The position numbers were made by a program, and so were the translations under genes. A DNA stretch of 64,000 nt, taken from a virus. The stretch's first letter is position 1; each line of letters opens with the position of its first letter. The notes below the pieces were generated by a model that saw nothing but the letters and a program-made list of their open reading frames with translations, had not been told where the DNA came from and searched no databases. The stretch lies in IMG/VR virus record IMGVR_UViG_3300042484_001840, positions 1-64,000 of that record. One strand, 5' to 3'. Positions 24,072-55,700 of the stretch are shown here, one piece after another.

Positions 24072-24254
24072 TCAGCGTCCTCCGCGGAACCTATCTGGGA
24101 TTAAGTCTCGTCCAGCACCATCGGGGTTGCCAGCGCCGCCAAGACGACGATTTAAGCCTCTTAAAAGGAATGCAAGAGCACGCCGCCACCACGCAGGGCG
24201 ACGACCTTCGCGCTCGTCTGGTTCAGTATCTGGGGTACCACCGGGTATAGGCAT
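24072..24254 (-). CDS. small Arg-rich peptide
   Basis: 60 aa with an AGGAG RBS and an upstream CAGTAG-N18-TAAAAT. Confidence 0.55.
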   Translation of the reverse strand: MPIPGGTPDTEPDEREGRRPAWWRRALAFLLRGLNRRLGGAGNPDGAGRDLIPDRFRGGR

Positions 24255-24276
24255 ATTTTCTCCTAATCTCTAAAAG

Positions 24277-24306
24277 ATTTTAGCACAATATAATAACGCG
24301 CTACTG
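24277..24306 (-). promoter_or_regulatory. CAGTAG-N18-TAAAAT candidate promoter
   Basis: One-mismatch variant with identical spacing and an extended TG. Confidence 0.5.
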
Positions 24307-24307
24307 A

Positions 24308-24898: not shown

Positions 24899-24906
24899 GA
24901 TTTCCC

Positions 24907-32692: not shown

Positions 32693-32750
32693 ACCGTTCC
32701 CTCGTAGATCATAAGATACATTAGTGTTGACCAAAGCCTCAGAGGTACAT

Positions 32751-32930
32751 GTGAAAAATTTTCTGTCAAAATTTAAAGGCAAACCATGGCGCACAATGGC
32801 TGCGGACACTTTAATGATAACATTTATAGTGCTTACAAGTATTGGAGCATACATGATAGCACCGCCAGTTGGACTAATTACTGGTGGGGTATGTTGTGGC
32901 TTATACGGCTTTCTTTTGGGGTCTGAATAA
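32751..32930 (+). CDS. small two-TM membrane protein upstream of portal
   Basis: GTG after GAGG; two hydrophobic helices. Confidence 0.65.
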   Translation: MKNFLSKFKGKPWRTMAADTLMITFIVLTSIGAYMIAPPVGLITGGVCCGLYGFLLGSE

Positions 32931-36996: not shown

Positions 36997-38622
36997 ATGG
37001 ACACAGAAAAATCTTTAGTAAAAATAACAACCAAGTATCACTGCATGGTTTCTGGAAAGAAACAAATGGAACCATGCGACGGATGCACCAACCCACAAGG
37101 CTGTCTTTCAAAAGCCATGCAATACAAGGAGAATGAAGAAATGGACGAACTCAACGAAAAGGCTATCGTCAAACTAGATGCAGACGGTGCTGTCGTAAAG
37201 TGCGCCAAGGGTCTTGAGGCTGCTGAATGTGGCTATAAGGCTGGAGCAAAAGTTTGTGGTGCTTGTGGTGCAATGGCATCAATGACCAAGGCTGACATGA
37301 TGCCAGATGCCGAAGAAGACGAAGAAGAAGAAATGTCGGATGACGACACTTCAATGATGCCCGATAAGAAGAAAAAGGGTGGCATGGGTGGCTACGCAAT
37401 GGGCGAAGATGACGAGGAAGAAATGATTCCCGCAAAGAAGAAGGGCGGGATGGGCGAGTATTCCGAAGATGACGAAGAAGAAGTCATGCCCGCAAAGAAG
37501 CGCGGTATGCCGATGGTGGATGCGGAAATGGCTGACGACGAAGAAATGATGCCTACTCCGAAAAAGAAGAAGCCAATGATGATGGTTGAAGACGAAGAGG
37601 AAATGCCTGAAGACGAAGAAATGGGCAAGACTTGGATGATGAAGCCAAGCAAGCGTTCGCGCATGATGGCAATGAAGTCACTTGAAGTTAAGTCTGAAAA
37701 TGACGATGTTTACATGTGTCAGTTGGAACGCAAGTCATACCCGTCAGCAAGTCAGATTTGCGAGAACTGCCCTGGTGGATGCCAGACAGAAGGCGGCATG
37801 CCTGGTTTGTTGGATGTTGAAGGCGTTGGTCTTGGCATTATCGGCGGAAAAGTACTTGACTCTGGTTACTCGTTTGACGACGACCTTTTTGTTGTTCAAC
37901 TTCAGGCAAAAGATGGCAATACATGGGAAATGATTGCCGATGGTCAAAGTGGTGAAATGTTGCGCATGGAGCGCATTAAGACACCAGACTTTGGCATTGA
38001 AGGCAAGTCGGCATTTGATGAAGAAACTGCTTCAGACTTTGGAATCGTTTCAGCATCAGAAGCAGTTGAGATTGCATTGAAGTCGCTTGAAGCAGAATTT
38101 GATGTAGTTGGCGATGTCGTTTCAACTGACTCGGATGTATTCCTCGGTCATGATGTCTACTCAATTGAAGTGGATGCAATGAATGGCAAGTCATACGATG
38201 TCTATGTTTCGCTTGATGGACAGTTTGTTGGTCTTGACGAGTGGACTGCCGATGAAGCAGAAGAAATTGAAGCAGAGGCTGCTGAAATTGCACTGAAGCG
38301 TGCATACGACGAAGAGTCACGCACAGACATGGCTAAGGGCGGTATGGCAATGCCTGACGGCTCATACCCAATCAAGGATGTTGCTGACCTTCGTAATGCA
38401 ATTCAGGCATACGGACGAGCCAAGGACAAGGAAGCAACCAAGGCACACATCATTAAGCGTGCAATGGCTTTGGGTTCGGAAGATTTGATTCCTGAGAATT
38501 GGGTTCCGAAAGATGTTGCTGACAAGTTCTCTAGCGAAAAATCTGAAGACAATCAATTTATGGCATCTTTGATGGAATTTGAACTTCTCGCACAAGAAGA
38601 GAATCTTAAAGACATTCTCTAA
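36997..38622 (+). CDS. acidic multidomain head protein (Cys motifs, Met/Glu/Lys repeats, two PepSY-like domains)
   Basis: CDGC, CGAC and CENC motifs; SASEAVEIAL..GDVV..VYSIEV...GKSYDVYVSLDG (PepSY-like); C-terminal AMPDGSYPI..DLRNAIQAYGR. Confidence 0.7.
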   Translation: MDTEKSLVKITTKYHCMVSGKKQMEPCDGCTNPQGCLSKAMQYKENEEMDELNEKAIVKLDADGAVVKCAKGLEAAECGYKAGAKVCGACGAMASMTKADMMPDAEEDEEEEMSDDDTSMMPDKKKKGGMGGYAMGEDDEEEMIPAKKKGGMGEYSEDDEEEVMPAKKRGMPMVDAEMADDEEMMPTPKKKKPMMMVEDEEEMPEDEEMGKTWMMKPSKRSRMMAMKSLEVKSENDDVYMCQLERKSYPSASQICENCPGGCQTEGGMPGLLDVEGVGLGIIGGKVLDSGYSFDDDLFVVQLQAKDGNTWEMIADGQSGEMLRMERIKTPDFGIEGKSAFDEETASDFGIVSASEAVEIALKSLEAEFDVVGDVVSTDSDVFLGHDVYSIEVDAMNGKSYDVYVSLDGQFVGLDEWTADEAEEIEAEAAEIALKRAYDEESRTDMAKGGMAMPDGSYPIKDVADLRNAIQAYGRAKDKEATKAHIIKRAMALGSEDLIPENWVPKDVADKFSSEKSEDNQFMASLMEFELLAQEENLKDIL

Positions 38623-38652: not shown

Positions 38653-39276
38653 GTGTCGTTTGATTTTTCAAAAGTTAACGGTGTCCAAGTAAAATTAGCA
38701 GTATCTCCTGATGCTATTCCTCAAGAACGCATCACTGGGGATATTCTTAAAGGACGCGGACCCCGACGAGGAAACCTAGAACGCTTACTTCGTTATTGGC
38801 GACCCATTATGCGCAAGCCTGGTGGATTTCGCCGTTGTAAAGTCATTTTGGCAGACCATCCCGAATTATTCCCATTGAATAACATTTGCGCTTGGCTTCA
38901 TCATGAGACTACTGGCTTATGGCCAAACGAGGGATGCCATCACCCTGGTATGAAAAATTGCCGTAAGAAAATTCAAGGTGTCGTTAGAGGTTCAGTTATT
39001 AGCGATAATGAATTTGCTCAGCGTCTTTCACGGCTTCGTGGCGATGGAAAGTCTCTTGACTCCATGGATGGTTACGATTCTGAAGTTGTAACTGAATCAG
39101 ACTTTAATCACGCAAAAACTGTCCTTGATGATTTTATTGAAATGGAAAATAAATTCATTATTTTTATTAATGATGATAATAATTGGCTTCACGAAGGTCA
39201 AGACGAAGATGGAAATTGGTCTCCGCATGATTGGATGAAGCCAGAAGGTCACGAAAAAGACTGCGGATGCGGGTGA
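38653..39276 (+). CDS. head-associated protein with a Cys/His-containing domain
   Basis: GNLERLLRYW..PGGFRRC...CAWLHHETTGLWP; AAGGAG RBS. Confidence 0.65.
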   Translation: MSFDFSKVNGVQVKLAVSPDAIPQERITGDILKGRGPRRGNLERLLRYWRPIMRKPGGFRRCKVILADHPELFPLNNICAWLHHETTGLWPNEGCHHPGMKNCRKKIQGVVRGSVISDNEFAQRLSRLRGDGKSLDSMDGYDSEVVTESDFNHAKTVLDDFIEMENKFIIFINDDNNWLHEGQDEDGNWSPHDWMKPEGHEKDCGCG

Positions 39277-39281: not shown

Positions 39282-41219
39282 TTGGAAGATAGTGACCGCA
39301 GGGAAAACCATCCTGACTGGGTTCAGGCACGGGTTAAATCATTTATTCAGGATACAAAAGTCGGCACTGTTCGTTCTGGTTCTGGCGTAGGGCAAGCACT
39401 ACAAGGCGCAGTTTCATATGTAACTCCTGGTGATGTTAGTGGTGTAACTAGCCCTGTTCGCTCTCGTCTTTACTCCGCCATTACTCCTGGTGGTCGTGGC
39501 TTGCGCCCTCGTGTCAATAGACCAAATGAGCGCGGATATCGTTGCCCTGAGGGATATCAGTTTGGTGGTCGCTTTACTGACTCCAAGTGGTCCACATGTG
39601 GACGACAGTTATTTGATATCCCATCACTATCACGAACTTTGCTTCAAATTGCCGATAACGCTATTCGTGTAGGGCGTGGTATTGGTTATCAAAATCCTGA
39701 CACAAACCCTCTTGGTGGTGCCGAAGTTACTGGCGGTTCATTGATTCAGAGCCGTATGGCAAATATTCCTCGTGTTAGTGCTTTTGACAAAAAGAAGCGT
39801 GATGATGGCTTAAAGGCGGCAATTGACGAGTTAGTCAATCCATTGGCTCCAGCGTCAATGATGATTCGGCGCGATGGTTTCCCAATGCAACCAGTCGTTT
39901 CTGCTGGAGAATTACGGAAAGTTCCAGACAATCGCAATATGGAAGGCGCAGTCTTTCTATTGTCTGCATCCAATATTGATTCTTTTGGTGGCGATGAATT
40001 GGGTTTATTGTCAAATACTGGCGTGAGCACTTTGATTTATGTTCTACCTAATGGTTCTACTGTTCGTATGGACAAAACCCGTGCGTTAACCGTAGGCGAA
40101 CGGCGCAAGTTGGGCAAGACTGTCAGTTCGGCATCCAAGATTGACAATAGTAATGATCCATTGGCTCGTCTAAAAATGGTCATTTCAGACTCTGGTGGCG
40201 GAATTTCTATCAACAAAGATTTTTCTAAAATTCGCAATGCTGAAGAAGTTGTTGATTCAGGCAAATTTAAAGGAAAGCCTCGCTGGGTTGCTGAAGCGTT
40301 TCGCAATAGTGGCAAAAAGCGTACTGTTTCTCCCCAGTCAATTGTTGATGATTCCAAGTTGGATTCCGAAACAGAAACTCAAGCAAGTAAAAATATTAAT
40401 GATATTGAAACTGCTATTGAACATATAAACAACGGTGGAAATCTTTCTGATATTAATCCCGCTATTTTGCCTCAGGCTATTCGTCGTGCAAAAGTTTATC
40501 GTCAAAAGAATATTGGATCTGGTCGTATTCTTTTTGAGCGTGCTGACGGCGGTGTTTCTTTTATAGAGGTTTCCAATGGAAAGCGCCTTGAGCATCTTGG
40601 TGCCCATTTTTCTGCCGCTATCGCTGAACATCTTGAATTACCTACTCCTAAAGTCCGCATCATGGGCGAAGGAGACAATCGCCCGTACCTCGTTCAAAAC
40701 ATTGATACTGTCGTGCCAAATGGCAAATTACAATCTATGAAGTTGACAGATATGCCCGCAAAAGACCTTGCTGGTATTTTTGTTTCTGATTACTTGACAG
40801 ATGTTCGCAAACGAAATCCTTCTACTGTTTCGGCTGTTTCTGCTGATGGTAAAGTTCGCGCAATTGCAACGATGAATACCCCCTCGTCGTTGGCTGGTTT
40901 ATCTGCTGAAGAAATGATCAAGCGTCGCTCCATTGTTATTGGCGATTGGGTAAAAGCAGATGGGAATAACATGATTAATGCCATCAAAAACCGCAATGAA
41001 GAAGTTCGTCGTCAAATTCTGGCTGTTTATGAAGATTTAATTCAACGAGCACGCGCTTTTAAATGGGATAGATACATTAAGCAACTACGGTTAGACGGTA
41101 AACTTTCTAGTGCAGAACAAAAGCATATGGATATTGTTAAATCTCTATATGACCAAAGACTAGACAATTTAGCCAAGTCTAAGGAATCTTTTGCTAATAT
41201 TTTGGAGTTAGGCAAATGA
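39282..41219 (+). CDS. RCP-motif protein with a C-terminal HipA/PI3K-like pseudokinase
   Basis: GYRCPEGYQFGGRFTD..CG; FVSDYLTDVRKRNPST sits at the DRHxxN position. Confidence 0.65.
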   Translation: MEDSDRRENHPDWVQARVKSFIQDTKVGTVRSGSGVGQALQGAVSYVTPGDVSGVTSPVRSRLYSAITPGGRGLRPRVNRPNERGYRCPEGYQFGGRFTDSKWSTCGRQLFDIPSLSRTLLQIADNAIRVGRGIGYQNPDTNPLGGAEVTGGSLIQSRMANIPRVSAFDKKKRDDGLKAAIDELVNPLAPASMMIRRDGFPMQPVVSAGELRKVPDNRNMEGAVFLLSASNIDSFGGDELGLLSNTGVSTLIYVLPNGSTVRMDKTRALTVGERRKLGKTVSSASKIDNSNDPLARLKMVISDSGGGISINKDFSKIRNAEEVVDSGKFKGKPRWVAEAFRNSGKKRTVSPQSIVDDSKLDSETETQASKNINDIETAIEHINNGGNLSDINPAILPQAIRRAKVYRQKNIGSGRILFERADGGVSFIEVSNGKRLEHLGAHFSAAIAEHLELPTPKVRIMGEGDNRPYLVQNIDTVVPNGKLQSMKLTDMPAKDLAGIFVSDYLTDVRKRNPSTVSAVSADGKVRAIATMNTPSSLAGLSAEEMIKRRSIVIGDWVKADGNNMINAIKNRNEEVRRQILAVYEDLIQRARAFKWDRYIKQLRLDGKLSSAEQKHMDIVKSLYDQRLDNLAKSKESFANILELGK

Positions 41220-44200
41220 GTAAAATAGTTCTTATTAAAGACGCAATCAAGGATGAGCCATACGCTCTTGTGTCTTACGACTTCATGGAAGTTAAGGCAT
41301 TTGCGTTAACGGACGATGCCGAAGAGTGGTCTGAGTGGGCTAATCAGTCATGTAAAACAATTGACGAGATTCGTGAAAGTCTTACCTATTCACTTCAGAC
41401 AGAACTTCCACGACCAGCAACTGAAATTGAATTAGATGGAATTAAGCAATTCACCACATCTGAGCGTTTTATTCAAATTAAGTCTGCAATTAGTGAATCA
41501 AAACTTGAAATGGTTGGCACATTCAGTCGTCAGAGTCGTCGCTTTGCCGTAAAGACATTGAAAGATTCGGAACTTCCAGAAAGTCCATCTTCATTGCCTT
41601 TGACTTCTTTTAGTGCTCAAAGTCGGCAGGCAATCATTGAGTATAAGGCCTTGTCTTACAGGGCTGACAATAAGTTCTCGGCTACAGCCTTTGAAGCAAA
41701 GGGTGCGCGAGCATTATGGGACCCCTCCCTTGGACCATCTGGCGGATGGCGATGCCCTACTGGTTCTCAGTTCGGTGGATACATCACTGACCGCTTTGGT
41801 CGTGGATGCGGTGGAGGGGTTCTCCGTCGTGTTGGGCGAGCATTAGTTGATGCAGGTCGTGGAATTGACAAATTGGGCGAGGCACGAGGCGCTCGTCGTC
41901 TTGGTCGTGCCGCTGACAAACTCAATAATAAGCCTGGTGGCGGACGCGCTCAGCGTGCCGTTGGTAATGCGGCTAATGCCCTTGAGCGTGGCGCACAGCG
42001 TTTGGTGGGAGACTTTAAGCCTGGTGATGGGCGTGCTCGTCGTCGTGGTATTTCAGCACCAGATATTGCTCCTGAGCGTAAAAAGGAAATTGATGACCGC
42101 TTGATGGCTATTCAGGCAGAACTTGATGATCTGGTTGATCAGCCTCCGACTGGCGATATTGAGAAGCGTATTACAGAACTTACCAATGAAAATAAGAAGT
42201 TGCGTCGCGAGCGAGATGGAGCAATGCCAAAGCGCATTTCTGCCGTTAAGCCTGCTCCATCAAAGCGTCGTGTTGTTAAGCCTGAGGCTGGACGCAACGA
42301 GCGAGTTCAAGGTGCACGCCCTGTAAAGAAGCCAGTTACGCAAGGTCGTCGTCAGGGCGTTCTAGATCGTGCCGCTCAACGACTCGTTGGAGAATATGAC
42401 CCATCAGAGTATAAGCCTGGTGACAAAAAGCGTATCAAAGATCGCGAAAATCGCTACGCAAAAGTTTCTGATGAAGCATTGATTAATGCGCTAAAGATGA
42501 ACTCGCCCAAGGCTGTTAAGCCGGGTCAGAATCGTGACATTGAGGCAAACAAGCGTCAAGAGCGACTTGAAGTTCTTCAGGAAATGCTCAATCGTGGCAT
42601 TGATGTCCCAGAACAATTCAAGAAGGAAGTCAAGCAGTATCGCTTAAAGCCCCAGCGTAAGAAGCGTGGCGCTAAGGCTGGTAGTCGTCGTAGTCGTGCC
42701 GCCAACGCCCTAGAGCGAGCCGCTCAGCGAGTTCTTGCAGGGGACAAGAATAAGAAGCGTCGTGACCGTAGTCGTCGCAAGCGTGCCGCCGATGCTCTTG
42801 AGCGTGGTGCAAAACGGATTCTTGATGGTAAGAAAAAGCCTAAAAAACAAGATAATCGCAAAAAGCCACAACCAAACGGTGGTCTTAACCTACCTGGCGG
42901 TGGTCGTGGGATTATTGAACCGCGAGATACTGAAGGTCTACCAAAACCAGGTATGGGGGGCATGCGAAAGCCTGGTGAAGGTCAACTCAGTCTTGAAGAA
43001 CTTCAAGATTTAATAGATAGTAATGCAGGAATTACTGGTCTTTCTGAATTACGCAAACAGTTTAAAGATTATGACGATGCCCAGATTGACGATTTTTTAA
43101 GTCGTTTTGTTAAAGCACGCGAAAAAATAGATAATGATGATCCAGAAAGATTAAAACTTGACAAGTGGATCATCAATCTTGAAATGGAAAAAACCGCTCG
43201 TGAACTTGATCGCCTAAAGAAGGGCAAGAAAGAACGAGATAATCAGCGTGCCCGTGCTCGTCGTGCCGTTACCGCTCAAAGCGCATTTACCCCCATTCGT
43301 CGTCCACGCCCAAAGAAAATGAAGGGCGACAAGATTGCTTGGGACGATATGGATGCCCAGCAAAAAGCACGCATGCGTAATCGTGCTATTGCCGAACTTG
43401 ATGATCTTGATGCAAGTTGGCGCAAGCGTCTTGGTTTAAAGAGCAATGAACCACTCACTGACAAGATGATTCGTGACTACATTAAAGAACGAGAGAACAA
43501 CAAGCCTGGTGCTTACATTGGCGTTCTTAAGGCTAACGCTAACGACTGGGGCGTTCTTAAGGATTACGCAAATGACCTTGAGAATGGGGATATTCTAAAT
43601 AATCTTGGTCCGAAGCGTCGCAAGACACTTGTTGACGACTTGAATAATGCTTCTGCACCTAAGCGTGTTAAGACACCAAGTTCACCCCGACCCAAGTCTG
43701 CCCCAAGTGCAAAAAAGCGTGATGGTCTAAACGATAATGAAAAGAACCGTCTCAAAGAACTTGACGGACCTGAGTTTGACAACCAAGTAGAAGCATTTGA
43801 CGAAGCAGAGCGTCTGGCTAAAGCAAATAATGAATCTATGGTTGCGTTTGAACAAGATGGAAAATTCCGTGTTGTCAAGGCTCAAGACTTTAACGATCTA
43901 CTAGATGGCATTGATGATGACAGTCGTATGCAAAATGCGATTGGTAGTGTTCGCCATTTTGATGCTAATGGTAACGAAAGCAAAATTGATGTTTCCGAGT
44001 CTGCTCGCGTTAAGCAATCAATTAAAGAATCACTTGGCATTGATGCTCCAGAATCGCTTGGTGGCTCAATACCCGATGATCGGTCACGACGAAATGTGCG
44101 TAATCGGTTCCCGAATAATGGACTCCCCGATAAGGCATTCTGGCGAGACAAGGACTGGAAGCCTCGTACTGGTGGAGATGATGCAGAAAAGCATGAGCGT

Positions 44201-47200
44201 AGGTTTGGTCGCTACTTTGATTCCGATGGCAATATTAATGCTCGTGGTCGCTTTGTTAACGCTCAGTTAGAACAAGAGCGAGCAGAAAAGGCAAAGCCTA
44301 GGTTTAGTAAGACACCAGAATCTGTAATTCCAGAATCTAGTCGTAGAAAAACATCTACTTTTAATTTTGGTAAAGTTGAAGTTTTTGGCGAGGATAATAA
44401 CGGAAGAGTTCTTTGGAAAGACAAAGATGGCTTTGTTATTCCTGACAACATCGTAAATGATGAAGCCGTACGACAACGCTACATGCGTTATGCAAAAGAG
44501 GGGCGAGATGCCTATCTAAATGGAACATTTGCGCAAAATCTTGGCAAAAAGATTGATGATCTTTTAGTCAATAACGACCCCGATAAGCGTCGTGATTTAA
44601 GAACTAATCTCCAAAATCTCATTGAAGATCGTCGTTTTTTAATTGCACGAGATAACCCCGTTGCGGAACGAGGCAAATGGGCTGGGGAATTAGTCGCATT
44701 CCAAAACATGCTTAACGAGTTGGATGCTCATCCAAACGCAGTAGACATTTCCCCAATGAAAAATGAAGGACTTGATTCCTTGCCCAAGGCTTCTATTAAG
44801 CGTCGCGATTTATCCCTTATCAAATTGCCTGAATTTAAAGAAGCAAAAGAAGTATTCGTTCAATATTATGACCTTCGTAATGACAGGTTCAAAGCACATC
44901 TTGAAAACGACAGGCTTGATGATGCAAATATCATGATTGAAGGACTTGCTAACGAAATTGATGGGCATAATAAGATGTTGGCTGACCCTGCAATGCCCGA
45001 AGAAGACAGAATTAAGATTTTAGCGCGCCGTTCAGCCGCTCTTGAAAAAGTAGGTAAGTTTAACCAAGATTTGCAACTTCGTATGGATGAAATCAATAAA
45101 CGAATTGGCGCAGAGAACGCTGCACGATTAGGAATTCCAAGACTAAGCGAAGGCAACATCCCAGATAGTGTTGACGCACGGCGGAGAGCAATCATTGGAA
45201 ACAATTATGAAATAAGGCTTTTGGACAATATCAACCTTGAAAGAGCAAAGGAACGCGCTGCGGAACTTGCAAAAGAAAAAAATGATGGCGAAGGCATCTA
45301 TGTTACACAGGATAAAAAGAGTGGCAAATTCTTCTTACTAACTCGGGCTAATTTTGAAGAAGCAGTTAAAAACGATGCTTTTTCTGAAAATTATGTCGTT
45401 GATGCTGTCGTCTATGCCGCAAAGACCCCAGCGCCACCAAAGCCTCCTAGCGTTGCAAGAATTCCTGATCTAAATGATCCGTTTGATGGATTTAAATTGT
45501 GGAACATGCCAATGAGTTTTGATGCGGACGATAAAGGTAATGCAATCAACGCAGCAAAAAGATATGCTGTTGAATTTGATAGCGATTTTGTAGTAGCACA
45601 ACGCATAAGTGATGGAAAGAAATTTGTTCTTGATGCTCGTGACTGGAATGACTTTGTAAACTCTCCAAAAGTAAATAGTGATGATTTCACTGGCGTGGCA
45701 ATTTTTGGCGGATATGGAAGAGATACCGACGGAATGCCTCGGCTAAACGCTGGCAAAAAACAACTTATTAATGAAATGCAAAGTAGAGATTTAGGTCGCG
45801 TTTTCCCTAAGGGTAATCGCATTTTTGGTAGTGGTGATAAGAAAGCAAAAGAACGCGCTCAAAAGTTTGCCAAAGAACAAGCAGATGCCGATGGTCGGAA
45901 TCGTTATGTTATTGACACTGGCAAAGAATATATGGTTGTCAATGAAAAAGAATATAAAGAACTGCTAGCAGAATTCAATAACAAGGAACAACGCCTAAAT
46001 GCAACGCTATCTCCAGAGAAGTTCATTAGAGAACGAAAAGGGAATAATGGAGTAGGTAGGGGCGCTCTTTCTGGTCCAAGGGAAATGGATATTGATTCCG
46101 ACGAATATAAAGACGCTGTTGTAGCAGTACATCAACAGAAGGGGTCAATTCAAGATATTCCAGACCCACTATTTGCTGCTGTTGTATTTGACGAAAACAT
46201 TACGGACGGTAAGGGCAATTCATTAGAAATGCCAGATGGAAGTGGCGTTGTTCAATTTGAGGACATTTTTTCTGGACGCTTTCAGCCAGATGAAAATTTT
46301 AGATTTGAAAATTTAAGATTTAAGTTTACGCAGAAAAAGCCAAATAATTACAGAGACCCAGACTATGGCGGGGTCTGGGCTGTTTATAAAGTTGAAGACA
46401 AGCAAACTGGCGAAACTTGGTGGATTAAATCTTCGGCATATGGAGTTCATGACGCACTACTTGAAGACATTGGCATGGAAGGTGCTGGTATCTTTAATTT
46501 TGCCGCTGCAAATAACGCAAAGAACATAAGAATTAGTGGTGAAATTCCGCTTGAGCAAAATGGTAGAAAAGTCAGATGGACTGCCATGCGTGATATTGAT
46601 GCATGGGAAGCCCCAGAGGGTCAAGAGCAACTCAGTTGGGTAGATGCCAATAATGGTGGCATTGACGGCAATAATGTCAGTCTAGAAGATATGGCTAATA
46701 TTTTTGTTATGGATTTTGTCTTGGATAATCAAGATAGGCATGGCGGAAACTTCAAAATTGCAACTGATAATAATGGTGTTCAGCGTCTAGGCATTATTGA
46801 TAATGGTTTAATGTTTGGTGGTCGCGGATATGACATTATTGGTATGAGCCGTGATAACCCATTATCAAAAGCAGACATTAATCAAATTGCTGCAGAACGA
46901 GAAGCGTTAGACATGAAGGGATATGCAGAGGGTGATGGAAATATTTTAATAAGAGGATACAGTCTTCCTTCTTCATTCAAGAATCGCCTAGCGTCAAGTC
47001 AATTTGCTAGAGATGAATTCAATCTTCAGGTTAAATACTCAATTGAAACAATGCGAGAAAATATTGACAGAATTCTTGATGAGCAAAGAATTAAAGGAAA
47101 AGGTATTAAACTTTCAGAAACAGAACTAGCACATCTAAAAGCAATGAAATTAGTTGCTGATGCTCGCTTGAAATATCTTGAAGCAAACCCAACTGCTGTG

Positions 47201-47341
47201 ACTGACTATTTGTTGAAAGACCTACAAGTTAATCAGTCTTCTTCAACTCCCAGTCCAATAAATGCCCCAATGTCTCCAATTCGTCGCCCAAGGGGATTAA
47301 CTGGTCGTCAGGTTGGCTCGCCTTTTGCTGGAGGATTGTAA
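41216..47341 (+). CDS. 2041-aa polyvalent protein with RCP motif and C-terminal HipA/PI3K-like kinase
   Basis: WWIKS...LLE...DFVLDNQDRHGGNF...IIDNGLMF. Confidence 0.8.
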   Translation: MSKIVLIKDAIKDEPYALVSYDFMEVKAFALTDDAEEWSEWANQSCKTIDEIRESLTYSLQTELPRPATEIELDGIKQFTTSERFIQIKSAISESKLEMVGTFSRQSRRFAVKTLKDSELPESPSSLPLTSFSAQSRQAIIEYKALSYRADNKFSATAFEAKGARALWDPSLGPSGGWRCPTGSQFGGYITDRFGRGCGGGVLRRVGRALVDAGRGIDKLGEARGARRLGRAADKLNNKPGGGRAQRAVGNAANALERGAQRLVGDFKPGDGRARRRGISAPDIAPERKKEIDDRLMAIQAELDDLVDQPPTGDIEKRITELTNENKKLRRERDGAMPKRISAVKPAPSKRRVVKPEAGRNERVQGARPVKKPVTQGRRQGVLDRAAQRLVGEYDPSEYKPGDKKRIKDRENRYAKVSDEALINALKMNSPKAVKPGQNRDIEANKRQERLEVLQEMLNRGIDVPEQFKKEVKQYRLKPQRKKRGAKAGSRRSRAANALERAAQRVLAGDKNKKRRDRSRRKRAADALERGAKRILDGKKKPKKQDNRKKPQPNGGLNLPGGGRGIIEPRDTEGLPKPGMGGMRKPGEGQLSLEELQDLIDSNAGITGLSELRKQFKDYDDAQIDDFLSRFVKAREKIDNDDPERLKLDKWIINLEMEKTARELDRLKKGKKERDNQRARARRAVTAQSAFTPIRRPRPKKMKGDKIAWDDMDAQQKARMRNRAIAELDDLDASWRKRLGLKSNEPLTDKMIRDYIKERENNKPGAYIGVLKANANDWGVLKDYANDLENGDILNNLGPKRRKTLVDDLNNASAPKRVKTPSSPRPKSAPSAKKRDGLNDNEKNRLKELDGPEFDNQVEAFDEAERLAKANNESMVAFEQDGKFRVVKAQDFNDLLDGIDDDSRMQNAIGSVRHFDANGNESKIDVSESARVKQSIKESLGIDAPESLGGSIPDDRSRRNVRNRFPNNGLPDKAFWRDKDWKPRTGGDDAEKHERRFGRYFDSDGNINARGRFVNAQLEQERAEKAKPRFSKTPESVIPESSRRKTSTFNFGKVEVFGEDNNGRVLWKDKDGFVIPDNIVNDEAVRQRYMRYAKEGRDAYLNGTFAQNLGKKIDDLLVNNDPDKRRDLRTNLQNLIEDRRFLIARDNPVAERGKWAGELVAFQNMLNELDAHPNAVDISPMKNEGLDSLPKASIKRRDLSLIKLPEFKEAKEVFVQYYDLRNDRFKAHLENDRLDDANIMIEGLANEIDGHNKMLADPAMPEEDRIKILARRSAALEKVGKFNQDLQLRMDEINKRIGAENAARLGIPRLSEGNIPDSVDARRRAIIGNNYEIRLLDNINLERAKERAAELAKEKNDGEGIYVTQDKKSGKFFLLTRANFEEAVKNDAFSENYVVDAVVYAAKTPAPPKPPSVARIPDLNDPFDGFKLWNMPMSFDADDKGNAINAAKRYAVEFDSDFVVAQRISDGKKFVLDARDWNDFVNSPKVNSDDFTGVAIFGGYGRDTDGMPRLNAGKKQLINEMQSRDLGRVFPKGNRIFGSGDKKAKERAQKFAKEQADADGRNRYVIDTGKEYMVVNEKEYKELLAEFNNKEQRLNATLSPEKFIRERKGNNGVGRGALSGPREMDIDSDEYKDAVVAVHQQKGSIQDIPDPLFAAVVFDENITDGKGNSLEMPDGSGVVQFEDIFSGRFQPDENFRFENLRFKFTQKKPNNYRDPDYGGVWAVYKVEDKQTGETWWIKSSAYGVHDALLEDIGMEGAGIFNFAAANNAKNIRISGEIPLEQNGRKVRWTAMRDIDAWEAPEGQEQLSWVDANNGGIDGNNVSLEDMANIFVMDFVLDNQDRHGGNFKIATDNNGVQRLGIIDNGLMFGGRGYDIIGMSRDNPLSKADINQIAAEREALDMKGYAEGDGNILIRGYSLPSSFKNRLASSQFARDEFNLQVKYSIETMRENIDRILDEQRIKGKGIKLSETELAHLKAMKLVADARLKYLEANPTAVTDYLLKDLQVNQSSSTPSPINAPMSPIRRPRGLTGRQVGSPFAGGL

Positions 47342-47342
47342 A

Positions 47343-47690
47343 ATGGAACAAGATATTGAAAGAACAGAAAAATCTTTAAAGGATTTAAAGAAAGAAATCA
47401 CATATCCTGCTGTTATTTATGTTGAGACAGAACAGGGAAATATTGCTCCAATTTTAGTTCTTGAACGAAAAGGTAGAATTACTTCTTATTTTTGGGGCGA
47501 TGTTAAACGCTATGATTCAAATGAGTATAATGTTGTTGGTGATACTGTAAGACTATCTATAGGTTCGCAGTCGTCAGCAAAACTATTTTTTATTGATAAT
47601 GCCACTCCTGTGGACATTGACAGACTTATAGATCAGGCTAAGAAAAATAAGATAGTCAAACCAGAACCTAAAGGCAAAACATCAAAATGA
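47343..47690 (+). CDS. small protein, putative partner/immunity of the upstream kinase
   Basis: ATG 2 nt after the upstream stop, with a GGAGG RBS; 115 aa. Confidence 0.65.
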   Translation: MEQDIERTEKSLKDLKKEITYPAVIYVETEQGNIAPILVLERKGRITSYFWGDVKRYDSNEYNVVGDTVRLSIGSQSSAKLFFIDNATPVDIDRLIDQAKKNKIVKPEPKGKTSK

Positions 47691-50600
47691 CTACCGATTG
47701 CGAAACTTGTCGTCCGCTTGTAAAAGTCATGAACCCCCAAATGTCTACGGACCGTAGGCGGTTTATGATTGAGAGCAAGGCTGCCGAATATCGCAAACAC
47801 ATGGGTCAGCCAAGCGGTTTATTGCAAAAGGGTGCTCGGGCAATATTTGACCCTAAACTTGGTCCGTCTGGTGGATATCGCTGTCCTGAGGGGAGTCAGT
47901 TTGGTGGTTACATTACCGACCGCTTTGGCAGAGGCTGTGGTGGGGGTATTATTCGCCGTGTCGGGCGAGCCTTTGGAAAACTAGGTCGTGGATTAGATAA
48001 CATTGCAGACAGGCGTGACCGTAGTCGTTTGGGTCGTGCCGTCAATCGCCGTAGTAAGCCTAATCGCGTTGCTCGTGCCGCTGGTGCGCTAGAGCGTGGA
48101 GCACAAAGACTTGTTGGCGAATACAAGCCCGGTGACTACAAACCAGGTGACGGTGGTCGTCGTAATAGGCGCAACCTACCTGGTGGACCCTCTTTGCGTC
48201 GTTCTGCTGTTCCACGCAAACCTAAGCGTGAACGCAAACTGCCCAAAGACGGGGACAAGAAGCCTCGCACCCAAGGGGCAACTCCCAAAAAGCGCCCCAT
48301 TATTGAGCGCGCTGCTGAAGGGCTAGAACGCGCTGCTCAGCGTGTTTTGGATGAAGATCGCAAGAAAAGAACACAAGGCGCTAAGCCTGCCAAGCCGAAG
48401 AAGCCTGTTGCTCCCAAGGTTCCTTCACTGAAGCCAAATGTTTCAGAAGATAAAAAACGAAACATCACCGACATTAATGATATTGACTGGGATAATTTAA
48501 CTCCCGAACAGCGTGACGAAATTCAAGGGATTCGTTGGGATGCCATTAGTGACCTTGAAGACAAAATGTCTAAGTATATTGGCGTTCCAAAAGAGCGCAT
48601 GGACCCTGTTCTATTTTTAGACAGAAATGAACGAAACAGAAATAATAAAAAATACCAAGCAGATGTGCTTAAGTGGAGACAATTACACAACAACTTTCAA
48701 GATATGCCAGCAGAAGCAATTAAAGAAATTGACTGGACCGATGGAGAACGCAAGAAGATTCTTGATGTTGTTAATGGGGATGTAAAGCCCGATCTTGCAA
48801 AAGACGGTGGAGAATTTGACTGGGATAATTTAACTCCAGAACAGCGTGGCAAAATCAAGGACATTGCAAACAATGCGCTAGAAGACGACAAAAAAGCACT
48901 TCTGAAACATTTTGGTGCTGCGAGTTGGAATAATGACAGAGTTAATCGTGCTATAGATTTAGCAGACAAAGGATTCATAAAGAAGGATAAAGCCAACGAA
49001 ATAGAAAAAATTGCATTGAGATGGAATCTGTTGCAAACCCAGTGGAATGACGAACCTAATCTTGCTATTAACGACATTAATTGGACAGACGACCAGCGTC
49101 AACAAATCCGTGATGCAATTGGCATAGAGGCTCCTAAGAAGCCCAAGACCCGTGGTGCTGACTTCTGGGAACGACGCAAGAATAACAAGCCGATCAAGCC
49201 TGAAGAATTAGATGTTGAGGATGCTCCAGAGATTTTCTCAAGCAAGCCAGACGGCACATCTGAAAGTAATCGTCTTGTCAAGGCTTGGGAACAAGCATAT
49301 GGAGACGAAATAGATAAATACTTTGCTGAGAAAAATGTAGATCGCCTTGAAAAATTAAAAAATTCAATAGATTTTATTCTCAATAAAAAAGAAATGAATC
49401 TATCTCCTGCTATGCGTCGGATGCTTCAAGAAAAAATTAATGACATAGACAAGAAGGTTGCTGCTCTCCGTGTGCGAAAAGCACGAGGTGCACGCACTGC
49501 CACACCAAAGCCAAAACTTCCCAGTCTTGTAGGTAAGCCAGTAAGCCGTCAATCAAAAATTACTCGTATTAAAGATAATGTCATTGATGCTTTGCGCATT
49601 AAAAACAGGCGTGAGAATGCTATGGGCGACTTTGCTCCAGACGCAATTGGTGATGGCGTACTTGCTTTCCCTGAAAACATTGTTAACGATGACATTAAAA
49701 ATGTGGCAGATGCAGTCAAGTGGCTTGATGACGGAAAATCATTATACGAAATTCCACAACATTATTGGCTAGAGGCAGTGACTGAGCATGTAGATAATGC
49801 AAGAAATCCACAATACAATAAAATTCCAATTAATAACCCTGGTGTTATTAAAAAGATTTTCATGTTTGAAAAATTAGACAAAGATGGAAAAGGCACTGGA
49901 ACTGGTGTCGTTTTTGCTCGTGCTCCAGGTAATGCAAGAGACGGCATGGGCGAGGTTATGGGTCAACAAGTCCTTAATGCTCTTGGTATGAATGTTGCTC
50001 CTGCGCGATTTGACGGAATTGTAAGAGACCCCGGCGGTGAAACTCCTGTTGCCGTAATGCCATTTGCTTGGAATAGGGCAGCACAAGGAGACATGCAACG
50101 ACCAGTAGCGATGAATTTTGACCGAAAGTTGTTTGATCAATTTGAAGATAAAGGATTCCCTGTACGACTAGGAAATTTATTAGGCAACTATTTCATGGGT
50201 GTTGGGGATAGGCACACAAATAACGCAATGATGGCAATTGTTGATGGTCAGCCTCATATTGTTCCTATTGACTTGGGCTGGAATGGTAACAGAAAAGATT
50301 TTTACCTTTATGCAAAGGGTGGATTTCAAGGTTTCTCAATGGACCCTGACTTATATGACAATATTGCAAATCACTTAGCCACACTTGATCCCGCAGAAGC
50401 AAAAAAACAACGCGATAAACTTGTTGAAGTTTTTGATGGAATGGTCTTGCGTGGTGATGCAATTGTTGCCCAAGGTAAAGATAAATTCATTAAAGATGCT
50501 GTAGCAATGATGCATCTTGGTGCTGATCCAGTTAAGAACGAGTCTTTTGTAGTAGAAATTGACAGAAAAGAACTTGAATCTACGATGGAGAAAAAAGCAT

Positions 50601-51937
50601 CGGATATATTTGATGCTTTAGAAGCAAATGTTGCGCAGGCGAAAAATGAAAGAGCGCGTTTATTTGATGCATGGGGAATGGAAGATGTTCCTTCATTGGG
50701 AGTACTTGAAGTAGTCCGCCCCACTAAGCCAAAGACACCAAAGGTATCTACACCCAAGGTATCCACACCTAAGGCACCTACCTCAAATGCATCCAAACCA
50801 AAAAGTGCTCTAGAAAGAATTATTGCACCACTTCGTATCAGTAATCCACAGAAAAGAAACCCACGAGTACCAATCTTGGCGGAAGTAAAATCTGGTGAAT
50901 TAATTGCTCGTCCAAAAATGATAGAAAATCCAAAAATTAAAAACCGCCAAAATGCCAAAGACTGGCTTGACAATGGTGGGCTAATTGAGGAAGTTCCGCA
51001 AAGATTTTGGGCACAAGCACTTTCTGACCATGTAAATGGTAACGCGGCAGTGAAACAGTATAAAGAAATTGACCCATCTGATGAAGTAGGTCAAGGTGCA
51101 GTTAAGACTACAAGAATTTACTTGGCACTTGATGAAAATGGTAAACCAACTGCCCAAGGGTTCCTCATTCAACGCGAAGGTGGAGTAGATAAACTCGGTG
51201 GGGCATTAGACAGAAATAATGTGGCAGAGTTGGTTGTAGCAAACATGCTCAATGCCTTTGGACTTAACTACGAACCAGCAAGACTAGATGGTCAACTTGA
51301 CGAAGATGGAAAAGAAGATTTAAATAAAGTTCCTGCTGTTGTTATTCCATTTGCATGGAATGGCGGACCAAACTATGTGAATGTTCAAAAGCCAAGTGGG
51401 TGGAATGCCGCCAACTTTGACAGGGATATTTTTGATGGTCTTGCTGATAAGGCATACCCACAGCGACTAGCAGCCTTTTTGGGAAATCTTGCTTTTGCCA
51501 TTCCTGATAGGCATGACCAAAATCAAATGGGTCAAATTATTGATGGTGTTCCTATGGTCGTTCCAATTGACTTTGGTTGGGCAGGCAAATACGGTCCAAT
51601 GGATTTCTATGATTATTTAGATGGCGAATTTGAAGAACTTGAACCTGACTTTTTTATGGACATGCAAAATCATTTGAATGGTTTAGACAAACAAACAAAA
51701 ATTGAACAAACACAAGCAATCAAACAAGTTTGGGACAATATTGAATCAAAACTAGAAGAAACATTTAATCGCGGGAAAGATCAATTTATTAACGATTTCC
51801 TTGATTTCTTAACACCAGAACAACGAGCAAACACAAGAGTGGTTGATCAGGCAACATATAAACTTAAGCAAATGTATGAACTTTTAGAAACACAATACAA
51901 TGAAATTCAAATTAATCGTCCTGAATTTCTTAAGTAA
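47687..51937 (+). CDS. 1416-aa polyvalent protein with RCP motif and two tandem HipA/PI3K-like kinase domains
   Basis: GDRHTNN..VPIDLGW (~50207) and PDRHDQN..VPIDFGW (~51506). Confidence 0.8.
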   Translation: MTTDCETCRPLVKVMNPQMSTDRRRFMIESKAAEYRKHMGQPSGLLQKGARAIFDPKLGPSGGYRCPEGSQFGGYITDRFGRGCGGGIIRRVGRAFGKLGRGLDNIADRRDRSRLGRAVNRRSKPNRVARAAGALERGAQRLVGEYKPGDYKPGDGGRRNRRNLPGGPSLRRSAVPRKPKRERKLPKDGDKKPRTQGATPKKRPIIERAAEGLERAAQRVLDEDRKKRTQGAKPAKPKKPVAPKVPSLKPNVSEDKKRNITDINDIDWDNLTPEQRDEIQGIRWDAISDLEDKMSKYIGVPKERMDPVLFLDRNERNRNNKKYQADVLKWRQLHNNFQDMPAEAIKEIDWTDGERKKILDVVNGDVKPDLAKDGGEFDWDNLTPEQRGKIKDIANNALEDDKKALLKHFGAASWNNDRVNRAIDLADKGFIKKDKANEIEKIALRWNLLQTQWNDEPNLAINDINWTDDQRQQIRDAIGIEAPKKPKTRGADFWERRKNNKPIKPEELDVEDAPEIFSSKPDGTSESNRLVKAWEQAYGDEIDKYFAEKNVDRLEKLKNSIDFILNKKEMNLSPAMRRMLQEKINDIDKKVAALRVRKARGARTATPKPKLPSLVGKPVSRQSKITRIKDNVIDALRIKNRRENAMGDFAPDAIGDGVLAFPENIVNDDIKNVADAVKWLDDGKSLYEIPQHYWLEAVTEHVDNARNPQYNKIPINNPGVIKKIFMFEKLDKDGKGTGTGVVFARAPGNARDGMGEVMGQQVLNALGMNVAPARFDGIVRDPGGETPVAVMPFAWNRAAQGDMQRPVAMNFDRKLFDQFEDKGFPVRLGNLLGNYFMGVGDRHTNNAMMAIVDGQPHIVPIDLGWNGNRKDFYLYAKGGFQGFSMDPDLYDNIANHLATLDPAEAKKQRDKLVEVFDGMVLRGDAIVAQGKDKFIKDAVAMMHLGADPVKNESFVVEIDRKELESTMEKKASDIFDALEANVAQAKNERARLFDAWGMEDVPSLGVLEVVRPTKPKTPKVSTPKVSTPKAPTSNASKPKSALERIIAPLRISNPQKRNPRVPILAEVKSGELIARPKMIENPKIKNRQNAKDWLDNGGLIEEVPQRFWAQALSDHVNGNAAVKQYKEIDPSDEVGQGAVKTTRIYLALDENGKPTAQGFLIQREGGVDKLGGALDRNNVAELVVANMLNAFGLNYEPARLDGQLDEDGKEDLNKVPAVVIPFAWNGGPNYVNVQKPSGWNAANFDRDIFDGLADKAYPQRLAAFLGNLAFAIPDRHDQNQMGQIIDGVPMVVPIDFGWAGKYGPMDFYDYLDGEFEELEPDFFMDMQNHLNGLDKQTKIEQTQAIKQVWDNIESKLEETFNRGKDQFINDFLDFLTPEQRANTRVVDQATYKLKQMYELLETQYNEIQINRPEFLK

Positions 51938-51954: not shown

Positions 51955-52380
51955 ATGGCTCAATATTTAATAGTTTACTCAGCAATTAATCCTGACTATA
52001 AACGAGGCGCTCCGTCTGGTTCTATTAAGTTTGACGGAGTTTCTGCAACAATTGTTGGACCTGATAGATTTGTAAAAGATTGGTCAAAGAAATTATCTAT
52101 TTCCTCGGTCTTGGCTTCAAGCATTAATGACAACAAAGTGGATATTTCAAGTTTTGTTTCAACAAACACCTATGTTGACATGATCTTTTTTGATGACGAT
52201 AGCGCATCTAAGAGTGATGATGGAAAATTAAAAAAGTTATACGATTCCATTTCTGGAAGTAAAAGAAAAATCACCCTTGAACGACTTCCAACTTTTGATG
52301 ATCCAGACTTTACAATTGAAAAACGAAATGCTTTTTTCAAAAAGGCACGCAAAATCAAAGAACAAAGTAGAAAAAAATAA
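51955..52380 (+). CDS. putative kinase partner/immunity protein 1
   Basis: 141 aa with an AAGGA RBS; paralog of the next gene. Confidence 0.7.
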   Translation: MAQYLIVYSAINPDYKRGAPSGSIKFDGVSATIVGPDRFVKDWSKKLSISSVLASSINDNKVDISSFVSTNTYVDMIFFDDDSASKSDDGKLKKLYDSISGSKRKITLERLPTFDDPDFTIEKRNAFFKKARKIKEQSRKK

Positions 52381-52710: not shown

Positions 52711-55700
52711 ATGGCAAAGATGCGCGCGTCATCCAAAGAAGATGCAATGAAGATTGCACGCTATGTTGGCTGTTCTGGCGCACACCAAGATAAGAAGGGG
52801 AATTGGATACCTTGTGCCAATCCCGAAGATCTGGTGGAGATCCTAGATAAATCTGCAAGAAACTCTACTGAAAAGTTAACCAAGAAAAAGCGTCGTCGGT
52901 TTGTTAATGGTCAATGGGAAAGACTCGGAGAACGAGGTCCTATCAGTATTGACACAATTGACGGCGGTGGACTTGTGTCTGGTATGGGCAAGTCATTAAC
53001 TGAATGGTTCAAAGAGGAATGGGTTGATATTTCAAGACCCAAAAAGGGTGGCGGGTTTGAGGCGTGCGGACGAGATGACGCAGACAAGGGCAAATACCCT
53101 AAATGCGTACCAGCGTCACGAGCAAGCAATATGTCAGAGGAAGAAATTCGTTCTGCGGTTTCACGAAAAAGAAGAGCAGAATCTACACAAAGTAGAGATG
53201 GCAAAAAACCGATTTATGTTCCTACTGATAAAAAGAACGACCCATTTGTTTTGAACGAAAAATCAGCAATACCCACAAATCCAGAACTTTATGCACGGGT
53301 TAAGGCTGAAGCAAAAAAGAAGTTTGATGTTTATCCTTCTGCTTACGCAAACGCTTGGTTAGTAAGGGAATACAAAAAACGGGGTGGCGGATATCGTTCT
53401 GAAAAAGCAGACGATGGCGATTATGAAGACTTTGTTGAAGACCTCACAGAAATGCAACTATCCGATTTTATTGATTGGGTAGATCAAAAAGAAAAAGCAG
53501 AAAAGGTCTGCCCGCCAGCAACATCAGATATTGGCTTAAATATCAAGAATCGTCAGAATGCTATCAACACGGCTGGTTATGGTCCCCTAAACCCTAAAGA
53601 ACCCAATGTGGACTTTTGGGAAAAGAAGGCAAAACGCTGGTCTGTAACGATTGAAGAATCCAAGAAACAAAAGTGCGGAAACTGTGCTGTCTTTATTAAG
53701 ACTCCTCGGATTCTTGAATGCATTGAGTCGGGTCTTGGTAATGAGGCTGGAGACACTGCTTGGGATGCAATCAATGCTGGTGACCTTGGATACTGCGAGG
53801 CATTTGACTTCAAGTGTGCTTCTGCCCGTACCTGTGATGCATGGGTCGGTGGAGGTCCAGTAACTGTTGAAAAGGGTAAGCAAGAGGAAAAGGCTGATAC
53901 TTCCACGATTATTATTGGTCGTGCTAAGCCTCGCATTGGTGACCCCGATGTCTACACCGACCCCAACTCTGCTCGTCTGCGTTCTCGTAAACTTGGTTGC
54001 ATTGGTATCGCTCGTAGAGAAACGCCAGATGGAGAAGTTGTCTGGACACCCTGCACAAATATCTCAGATCAACGCAGATACCAAGGCGAAACACCCTTAG
54101 GTCAGCGAGATGAGGCTCGGCGTTTTGCTGACAGACTTGCTGAAGTTGGCGGTCCTGATCGTAAGCGCCGACGCATGCGTAAGTACAAGAGCCTTGAATA
54201 CACGACAGATATAAAGGCTTTTCGGACTTTGGGTTCAAGTATGGGCGGTCGCGGGATCAGTGGTAGTTGTCGTGAATTTACTGGAGTTGATGGCGATGGT
54301 GATGGATTCGTATGTAATCCCGCCTCTCGCGAGGACGACCTACCCCTTGCGGACACCCGAAAAATTTTTAAGCGTGGCGGTAAAATGCTGTCAAGACAAG
54401 AATTGGTAGAGCAAGATGAAACAATTCTTAATATGTTTGGCAAAGGTGAATCTTTATCAAAAATCGGTAAAGAAGTAGATCTTGACCCAAAAGAAGTTGA
54501 TTTTTTAATCAATGGTTTCCGCAAAAATAATCCAAAATCTGCATTCACATTATTCAATAATCGCAATATCAATATTCAAAAAAAGCGTGAAGAGCGCAGG
54601 AAATTAGTACTTGAGAATGTTAGAAAAGCCACAGATGCCAACCGCAAGTTAAATGCAAGAGGCGAAGACCCTACGCCAGAATCTGATGATGATCTTGATT
54701 TTACCCTTGATCCAGATAAGGTTCCTCAATATCTTAAAAAGAATTTTGCTAAATATATGCAACGCTTAAAAGACCCTGAATTTGCTGATGAAATAAAAAA
54801 AATTGCTGATGATTTGCGTGCTGGTCTTGGTTTGGCTGGAACGGCAAAAAAATACAAACGAGACTCAGCATTTATAGAAATTGTTCGTAGAAATGAAAAA
54901 ATTACAAAAACAAAAAAACTACAAAAAAACATTAGAGAATCAGAAGTTCCTGATTTTAATAATGATACTGATGACCCCGATTTTACTCTTGACCCAGAAA
55001 AAATTCCTCAATTTTTAAAAAGGGGTTTTGCTGGTAATGTTAGGCTAGCAAGAAGTCCTGAGTTTGCGGAAGAAAGAAAGAAAATTGCTGATGACTTGCT
55101 CCTTGGTCTTGGAATTAATGCCGTAAGATTAAAATATAATCGCGATACTTCATTGGTAGATGTAGTTCGCAGGCTTGAAAAAATTCCAAAATCAAAAGAA
55201 CTCAAAAAAGTTGATCCTAAAATTAGACAGGATGTTGTTGACCTTGTAGATAAATTGATTAAAGATGATAATCCATTCATGTCGGTTGCCGAAATCGCAA
55301 AAGAATTTAAAATTACTGGAATGGATGCGCGTCGGATTATTAATGCTGCAAAATTGGAAAAATATTTTGATTTGCACAATAAATATACAGACGCAAAAAG
55401 AAAAAAACTTTTTGCTGAAGTTGCTGAACTTCATAAACTTGATCTTACATATGAAGAAATAGGCAAACGCTTAGGAATTAGTGGTGATGCAGTAAATCAT
55501 ATTGTAAAAAAAATGAAACTACCCCTAAGACGACCTGGCGGGGGAGGTGGTCTTCCTGGAGTAATAAAAAGAGGTGGCGTAATGATTCCTCGTTCATTGG
55601 CAATGAAACAAAACAAGGAAATGCTTGACTTGTATCAGCGTGGCTATTCTCTTACAGATATTGCTAAAGAAATGGGAATCGGTGTTGCTACCGTTAGGGA

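Follow-up and report, generated by a model that had tools for sequence, protein, structure and literature searches.

A near-invariant two-cysteine motif marks giant head-module proteins of an uncultured actinobacterial phage lineage and may act as their docking module

We analysed the first 64 kb (positions 1 to 64,000; hereafter, the window) of a 145-kb IMG/VR virus record, IMGVR_UViG_3300042484_001840, which has a CheckV completeness of 98%, and followed up a motif that recurs in three large proteins of its head module, here called A, B and C. The motif, with the core R-C-P-x-G-x3-G-G-x2-T-[D/N]-x5-C-G, is genuine and sharply defined, had not been catalogued before and characterises a large family of giant proteins encoded in phage head modules. 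Our leading interpretation, to which we assign a probability of roughly 45%, is that it is a cysteine-clamped docking and retention module of multi-enzyme proteins that are packaged in the head and injected. A small Cys-clamped module in the flexible, basic N-terminal part of each large protein would dock that protein for uptake into the prohead, and the proteins would then stay bound through it, whether to a conserved head component or to one another, until they exit with the DNA. We infer their presence in the virion, the part that the module plays in it and a disulfide or a partial metal site formed by its Cys pair. The phage is an uncultured actinobacterial phage, and the nearest cultured relatives of its capsid protein are actinophages, namely Brevibacterium phage Cantare and several Gordonia phages, at ~50% identity.

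A six-frame search placed the motif at exactly three positions in the 145-kb genome (E values of 7e-45, 2e-30 and 1e-5), confirming the copies at nucleotides 39534, 41699 and 47828 that had been reported in the original prediction and showing that there are no others. Protein A (645 amino acids (aa); 39282-41219, plus strand) carries an A-type copy at 39534-39602 (plus strand; residues 85-107), which begins GYRCPEG and includes Cys88 and Cys106. The copies in protein B (2041 aa; 41216-47341, plus strand) and protein C (1416 aa; 47687-51937, plus strand) are of a second, B type and begin K-G-A-R-A. That in B spans K162 to G201 (41699-41818, plus strand), with the core at R179-C180...C198-G199, and that in C spans K48 to G87 (47828-47947, plus strand), with Cys66 and Cys84; the copy in C is 100% identical in several metagenome proteins. 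BLASTP aligned B and C across their N-terminal ~270 residues (E = 4e-32), and the middle regions of the proteins diverge, as had been observed. Similarity between A and the two large proteins was confined to the motif core (E = 1e-5 and 3e-5).

Across a census of 508 instances in 424 proteins, representing 342 distinct strings, the motif hardly changed. The C-x17-C spacing was fixed in 337 of the 342 strings, Arg preceded the first Cys in 333, Pro followed it in 338 and the G-G pair was retained in 319. Thr was found in 311 strings (335 when Ser is included), with an adjacent Asp or Asn in 337. These two Cys were the only conserved ones, and there was no conserved His. Both Cys clearly matter: their spacing is fixed and they are nearly the sole Cys of these proteins. 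The motif lies between 30 and ~640 residues from the N-terminus and is the most conserved element of large proteins that otherwise diverge strongly.

The motif comes in three flavours. In the A type it is followed by Q-L-F-D-I-P, and 41 sequences share R84, R87, C88, G91, Q93, G95, G96, R97, F98, T99, D100, C106 and G107. In the B type a helix and an invariant K-x-x-R-A-x-[W/F]-D come before it, and R-R-[IVL]-G with a long basic helix comes after; residues invariant in 25 sequences are K162, R165, D169, R179, C180, P181, G188, G195, C198, R204 and R205. K162 is the Lys that had been seen directly before the motif in the two large proteins, an observation that held throughout this set. The third flavour lies near the N-terminus of some giant proteins. 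A second repeat, A-L-E-R-[GA]-A-[QK]-R-[LVI]-[LV]-x-G, often followed by [DE]-[YF]-K-P-G-D, occurs after the basic helix, three times in B (residues ~250-540) and about twice in C (~130-225), and relatives keep L-V-G-D-Y-x-P; its function could be that of a protease site or of a binding repeat.

The proposed profile search and the catalogue of cargo and gene neighbourhoods were both carried out, and gave a family with head-module context and varied cargo. Searching 1.84 billion representative proteins with a 40-position HMMER profile yielded 360 clusters at E ≤ 1e-3, of which 201 reached E ≤ 1e-10; motif scores of 58-97 bits (E = 1e-11 to 1e-23 against this database) were far above chance. In IMG/VR, 111 stretches were confirmed by one scan and 447 by a second. 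An alignment of the A family found only two matches in cellular genomes from 185,579 species, both on short contigs of metagenome-assembled genomes (MAGs), and these yielded neither a prophage nor a host. Comparison of C, A and the neighbouring protein g207 with 50,697 phage records (tblastn) gave no match, blastn of the head region against cultured phages gave a single 146-bp match, and Gordonia phage ChisanaKitsune, with a capsid protein 49% identical, has no motif in its head region. Neither Pfam, PHROGs nor NCBIfam has an entry for the motif, its profile had no match among PDB sequences even at E ≤ 10, and the ESM Atlas returned no usable match. Because it is absent from the cultured phages and from these family and structure databases, and appears in cellular genomes only on the two short MAG contigs, the motif is a module that is confined to phages and uncharacterised.

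Genes of internal head proteins often lie between those of the prohead protease and the capsid protein, and this is where the genes for A, B and C are found. Upstream of them in the window are genes for a portal protein (32933-35203, plus strand; PF04860, 2.5e-49), a prohead serine protease of the S78 family, HK97 type (35297-36982, plus strand; PF04586, 2.8e-11; phrog_80), the 541-aa protein g541 (36997-38622, plus strand) and the 207-aa protein g207 (38653-39276, plus strand; immediately before the A gene), and the downstream end of the block is a major capsid protein gene of the HK97 fold (56122-57420, plus strand; PF05065, 1.6e-47, from residue 160). We examined loci in 158 of the IMG/VR stretches, 156 of them motif-bearing. 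Head genes (portal, protease, g541 or g207) were directly upstream of the motif genes in all 117 loci with enough upstream sequence, and the capsid gene was downstream within the fetched flank in 46 of 53. Homologs outside head modules, which the original prediction had set beforehand as counting against it, were not encountered. Since the motif genes lie between an S78 protease gene and an HK97-type capsid gene in every locus that could be judged, their position argues for packaging of the proteins in the head.

The motif-bearing loci differ in how many copies they hold: one in 48 loci (some of these on cut contigs), two in 91, three in 15 and four in 2. An A-type protein, or the A-type segment of a fused giant protein, was present wherever the contig covered the position. 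In the clade of the window A is universal, many phages have A alone and giant genes of the B or C type are optional.

Structure predictions with AlphaFold2 (AF2) place the motif outside the large folds. In A, residues 1-161, including the motif, had a predicted local distance difference test (pLDDT) score below 50, and the two domains that follow were confident. In the N-terminal part of B, the model has a confident N-domain (1-93), a helix (137-162), the motif as short strands (pLDDT 63-86) and a long helix (200-237). A fold search of BFVD with this model returned only uncharacterised proteins of uncultured Caudovirales, and VIA-align matched its long helix (199-241) only to coiled coils (Z ~5), which is uninformative. 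Because of these models, we describe the motif as a small element in flexible, basic surroundings, outside any large fold; such surroundings would suit a module that folds on a partner.

The motif proteins are also depleted of Cys. Among 369 family proteins of at least 600 aa, Cys outside the motif accounted for 0.088% of residues and was absent altogether in 153. The motif pair provides the only Cys in A, and B has three in 2041 residues. The terminase, portal, protease and g541 have Cys contents of 0.3-1.2%, compared to 0.04% in the capsid protein. Because the pair is invariant and the proteins are otherwise cleared of Cys, these figures point to a chemical role for the pair, either in a disulfide-closed loop or in a partial metal site. 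A Cys poverty like that of the capsid protein would fit proteins that live in the extracellular particle and thread through the tail.

What the motif is attached to differs from protein to protein. The N-terminus of A, which holds the motif, is disordered, and a folded domain (162-345) and, at the C-terminus, a kinase-fold domain (370-645) follow; the AF2 model of A, built on a 41-sequence alignment, had a mean pLDDT of 75.7, with ~90 over the kinase-fold domain. VIA-align matched residues 391-645 to CotH (5jda, Z 14.3), CtkA (3akj, Z 14.1), PI4KII-alpha (4hnd, Z 13.0) and HipA (4pu3, Z 12.3), and Foldseek found PI3K, CtkA and HipA (E = 7e-05 to PI3K-alpha). B starts with its folded N-domain (1-93) and a helix, after which come the motif, a very basic repeat region (~200-700; isoelectric point (pI) 10-11.6) and a variable middle; its kinase-like domain (1641-2010) contains D-R-H-x-x-N and I-D-N-G, and PF00454 matched residues 1824-1868 within it. 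C, whose homologs begin at residue 27, has the motif near its N-terminus, a basic region and two kinase-like domains (641-1000 and 1056-1416).

The C-terminal kinase-fold domain is common to A, B and C, which are paralogs, and is degenerate in A: the catalytic loop D-R-H-x-x-N and the metal-binding I-D-x-G are intact in the domain of B and in both domains of C, whereas A lacks the catalytic Asp and has V-R-K-R-N where B has Q-D-R-H-G-G-N. These domains scored 20-22.8 bits in Pfam, under the gathering threshold of 27.1, and share ~10% identity with known kinases. The segment after the motif is strongly basic in B and C (pI up to 11.9), and two relatives have histone-H1-like Pfam matches; both features fit proteins that lie against the packaged DNA.

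An atypical kinase domain of the PI3K/HipA/CotH kind was found in 236 of the 424 motif proteins, never before the motif. A kinase signal was also confirmed in a 2419-aa B-type protein of a related 137-kb phage. Pfam analysis of 26 kinase-negative relatives found sigma-70 region 4/helix-turn-helix (HTH) modules in three, together with an RNase T exonuclease (8e-22), a histone-H1-like region and a weak PolyA_pol head domain, each in a single relative, and it found no domains in six kinase-negative B-type giants, a 2097-aa B-type protein and a 4629-aa relative. The long middle regions are mostly without a recognisable domain. The cargo therefore varies, and the motif is always N-terminal to it; a cargo that was always the same had been named in advance as a reason to give up the idea, and this was not what we found. 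The description of the motif as a conserved domain defining a polymorphic family stands, as the motif is the best-conserved part and the cargo is varied, and the trafficking role given to that domain is retained only at the tentative level stated at the outset.

Two other interpretations turn on these enzymes. One places the function after injection, or otherwise in the infected cell, with the motif binding DNA or a host target, or regulating the kinase through its Thr as a phosphorylation or pseudosubstrate site. In its favour, the Thr or Ser (335 of 342 strings) has an acidic or amide neighbour, no partner is commoner than a kinase-like domain and an Arg-rich helix follows the B-type motif. 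However, the motif is equally conserved in proteins without a detectable kinase and in A, with its missing catalytic Asp; a surface directed at the host would be expected to vary, whereas this one hardly varies across hundreds of contigs; and the strict location in the head module would be left unexplained. We regard such a role as a long shot. The other interpretation gives the motif no function of its own: the proteins would be ordinary late cytoplasmic enzymes whose genes are in the head operon by chance, and the motif would be a structural leftover of paralog descent. Common ancestry of A, B and C, with their shared kinase fold, would explain some of the similarity, but not why the motif is near-invariant while the rest has diverged past recognition by BLAST, why it is duplicated within single chains or why Cys has been lost elsewhere, and we give this possibility very little credence.

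The duplication within chains is seen in a larger sister clade, in which one giant polypeptide of up to ~3,600 aa unites the g207 domain with the N-terminal half of A and a B-type protein. In these fused proteins, residues ~9-99 match residues 20-109 of g207 (E = 1e-28 to 1e-45), residues ~175-512 match residues 26-347 of A, covering the A-type motif and the first folded domain (E ~1e-20), and residues ~545-650 match the N-terminus of B and C with the B-type motif (E = 1.6e-9). The rest is a long variable region, often with a kinase-like domain at its end, and each chain has 2-3 motif copies, at ~240 and ~600. Judged from these alignments, g207, A and B of the window are split pieces of what is elsewhere one polypeptide, whether that is the ancestral or an alternative form. 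Their fusion in phages of the sister clade suggests that g207, A and B act together.

Fusion and copy number bear on a further possibility, that the modules clasp one another: A with B or C, or with the g207 domain, would be joined by a shared metal ion or by intermolecular disulfides into one internal complex, and the link could open in the reducing cytoplasm of the host. Each module has two Cys at a fixed spacing, too few for a zinc site of its own; most genomes have at least two copies (two, three and four copies in 91, 15 and 2 loci); the sister clade combines A-type and B-type copies within one chain; stray Cys have been lost elsewhere in the motif proteins; and there are Cys-rich neighbours in the head module, including g207, with C-x17-C-x3-H-H and a C-G-C-G end, and the C-terminal extension of the protease, with C-G-C-G-G. 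On the other side, 48 loci have a single copy, if some on cut contigs, and the AF2 geometry is not confident. A clasp of this kind seems unlikely to us as the principal function, but it is compatible with docking and does not exclude it. A further reading, which we put forward as a speculation with the odds well against it, makes C-x17-C a latch gated by redox state or by metal. In the oxidising surroundings outside the cell, the giant effectors would be cross-linked through it, either among themselves or with a Cys-rich head component (the g207 domain, the protease extension or g541), and the reducing host cytoplasm would open it, releasing and activating the injected kinases and other enzymes.

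The g207 protein is Cys/His-rich, and its synteny is conserved in the first set of loci. An alignment of the fused forms shows C54, C72, H76 and H77 of its domain to be invariant. The Cys spacing in its C-x17-C-x3-H-H equals that of the motif, and its C-terminus reads D-C-G-C-G. The protease has a C-terminal extension of ~320 aa, which contains A-C-G-C-G-G. Among the head proteins of this phage outside the shell, Cys-based sites seem to recur. As for the motif itself, R-C-P-x-G and T-C-G resemble what we take to be two half-knuckles of a zinc ribbon or rubredoxin (C-P-x-C-G) around a short hairpin with a G-G turn. A four-ligand zinc ribbon or knuckle was considered and rejected: with two conserved Cys and no conserved His, the motif does not form such a site alone.

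Docking as the preferred function can be compared with two groups of known systems. The first comprises T4 IPIII (Mullaney and Black, as cited in PMC9024508) and P1 DarB (PMC9024508), which are head-packaged and injected proteins with N-terminal packaging signals. DarB is described there as a multi-enzyme protein of 250 kDa with an N-terminal signal of 30 residues, its gene lying beside the portal and prohead protease genes (ORFs 10-12). In T4 and P1, each protein bears a single signal, right at its N-terminus and with little conservation; the P1 Dar proteins have no consensus (PMC9024508). As in IPIII and DarB, our motif is a short stretch of the N-terminal part, in proteins presumed to enter the prohead and then to be injected. 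Unlike those signals, it is internal (first Cys at 88, 180 and 66), can occur 2-3 times per chain, is nearly invariant and is built on C-x17-C. The prohead protease also differs: a T4-type sequence, ~10 residues long and by definition enough to bring a foreign protein into the capsid, is cut off after packaging by a gp21-type protease, whereas the one encoded here is a Peptidase_S78 of the HK97 type. Because it is internal, repeated and highly conserved, and because the protease belongs to a different family, the motif is not a T4-type capsid-targeting sequence, and the analogy drawn in the original prediction is weak. By analogy, the motif would at most work like that sequence; the nearest concepts are the DarB signal and the polyvalent or MuF-fused effectors.

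The second group is that of the polyvalent proteins (Iyer et al. 2017, PMC5512222), which are described as large, multi-domain proteins encoded near portal and head genes, with swappable enzymes that include kinases, and as predicted to be packaged and injected; MuF is named there as a head component fused to effectors. The motif proteins are likewise large, have varied enzymatic domains that include kinases, and are encoded in the same context, beside the virion genes of a terminase-portal phage. As to several effector domains in one chain, C has two kinase-like domains, but most of the long middle regions in the family show no recognisable domain. Unlike the MuF effectors, A, B and C have no PF04233; in this phage MuF sits on the portal protein, fused at its C-terminus (residues 667-752; PF04233, 7.5e-07). 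The kinases are of the PI3K/PI4K/HipA/CtkA/CotH kind and not of the clade of Ser/Thr/Tyr kinases without a C-lobe described in PMC5512222. Their fold is like that of the atypical kinases HipA, CtkA, CotH, PI4KII-alpha and Fam20, a likeness of the cargo domain and not of the motif. A two-cysteine module was not found in the sections of PMC9024508 or PMC5512222 that we covered.

Several points weigh against docking. No cultured relative carries the motif, and because cultured actinophages with ~50% identical capsid proteins lack it, this capsid type does not need it. Known capsid-targeting signals are single, N-terminal and poorly conserved, and an internal, repeated and near-invariant pattern would suit a structural or chemical role as well as it would an address. 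The AF2 confidence for the motif is low to moderate, and the Cys depletion and basic region bear on docking indirectly. We nevertheless consider the proposed docking function plausible, and the portal-MuF protein is a candidate docking partner. This portal and MuF arrangement is a single gene in the window (32933-35203) and two adjacent genes in most loci of the sister clade.

Phages that inject head-loaded proteins can act on the host before any phage gene is read. To our knowledge, cargo selection has been worked out for a few model phages only, and their signals are short and idiosyncratic. The motif, which marks such candidate cargo on several hundred uncultured viral contigs, provides a search key for candidate injected effectors in lake and soil viromes and is a compact candidate for a portable packaging tag. 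Its Cys pair, in otherwise Cys-free proteins, makes for a clear chemical hypothesis; if the latch were real, it would amount to chemically switched cargo retention in phage capsids, with one signature across a large uncultured actinophage lineage.

The protease and capsid protein raise one further alternative, in which the module is a recognition platform for the S78 protease and a maturation cut is made after the invariant Lys before the B/C-type motif, removing an N-terminal leader or dividing the fused giant. K162 is invariant in the 25 B-type sequences, the protease gene is three genes upstream, domain borders of the fused proteins fall near motifs and a K-S-x-G-E-x-F is retained where the delta domain of the family's capsid proteins ends. 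However, the A-type copy has no equivalent Lys, the nearest candidate being a K-P 7 residues before the Cys, and cleavage does not require ~25 invariant residues and a Cys pair downstream. A maturation site seems quite improbable, and like the clasp and the role after injection it would partly overlap with docking. In the capsid protein itself, which has a conserved N-terminal coiled-coil delta domain (~residues 1-70), the conserved K-S-x-G-E-x-F lies at residues 96-102 and probably marks the maturation cut, by analogy with HK97, in which the capsid protein is cut between Lys103 and S-L-G-S.

Other genes of the block and its surroundings complete the picture. The large terminase subunit is encoded at 31388-32854 on the minus strand. 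g541, which is conserved upstream of motif genes, is a very acidic, Cys-rich protein (pI 4.3; 123 Asp and Glu) with Met-rich, Met/Asp/Glu repeats of the E-E-E-M-x-P-x-K-K-K type and 12 Cys in C-x-x-C-like pairs; it is possibly a scaffold-like or counter-ion partner for the strongly basic B and C. In the sister clade a second copy of g541 lies immediately upstream of the capsid gene. Small basic open reading frames (ORFs) follow B (125 aa; 47313-47690) and C (141 aa; 51955-52380); the notion that the N-terminal domain of B is a fused copy of them was rejected, since BLASTP (E = 1.7 and 3.0) showed them to be dissimilar.

Just upstream of the capsid gene, an HTH-rich protein of 1082 aa (52711-55959) has DUF3721 and DUF5872 at its N-terminus, Cys-rich segments and a C-terminal sigma-70 region 4/HTH array, without the motif. 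HTH modules like these are found in the three motif-bearing relatives mentioned above, and the 1082-aa protein may be another packaged protein. In Gordonia phage ChisanaKitsune, the portal-to-capsid interval (10744-23944) is annotated in the record with an RNA ligase, a VIP2-like ADP-ribosyltransferase, a 970-aa 'HNH endonuclease', two protease genes and lysis genes, and for accessory proteins this stretch seems to be a hot spot across the capsid lineage in general. Elsewhere in the window, the tail and structural region encodes a glycosyltransferase (phrog_7162) and a phosphoadenosine phosphosulfate (PAPS) reductase-like protein (phrog_2302) at 22938-26070, which may relate to modification of the DNA or virion, and a collagen-like tail fibre protein of 1205 aa with many repeat matches is encoded at 855-4472.

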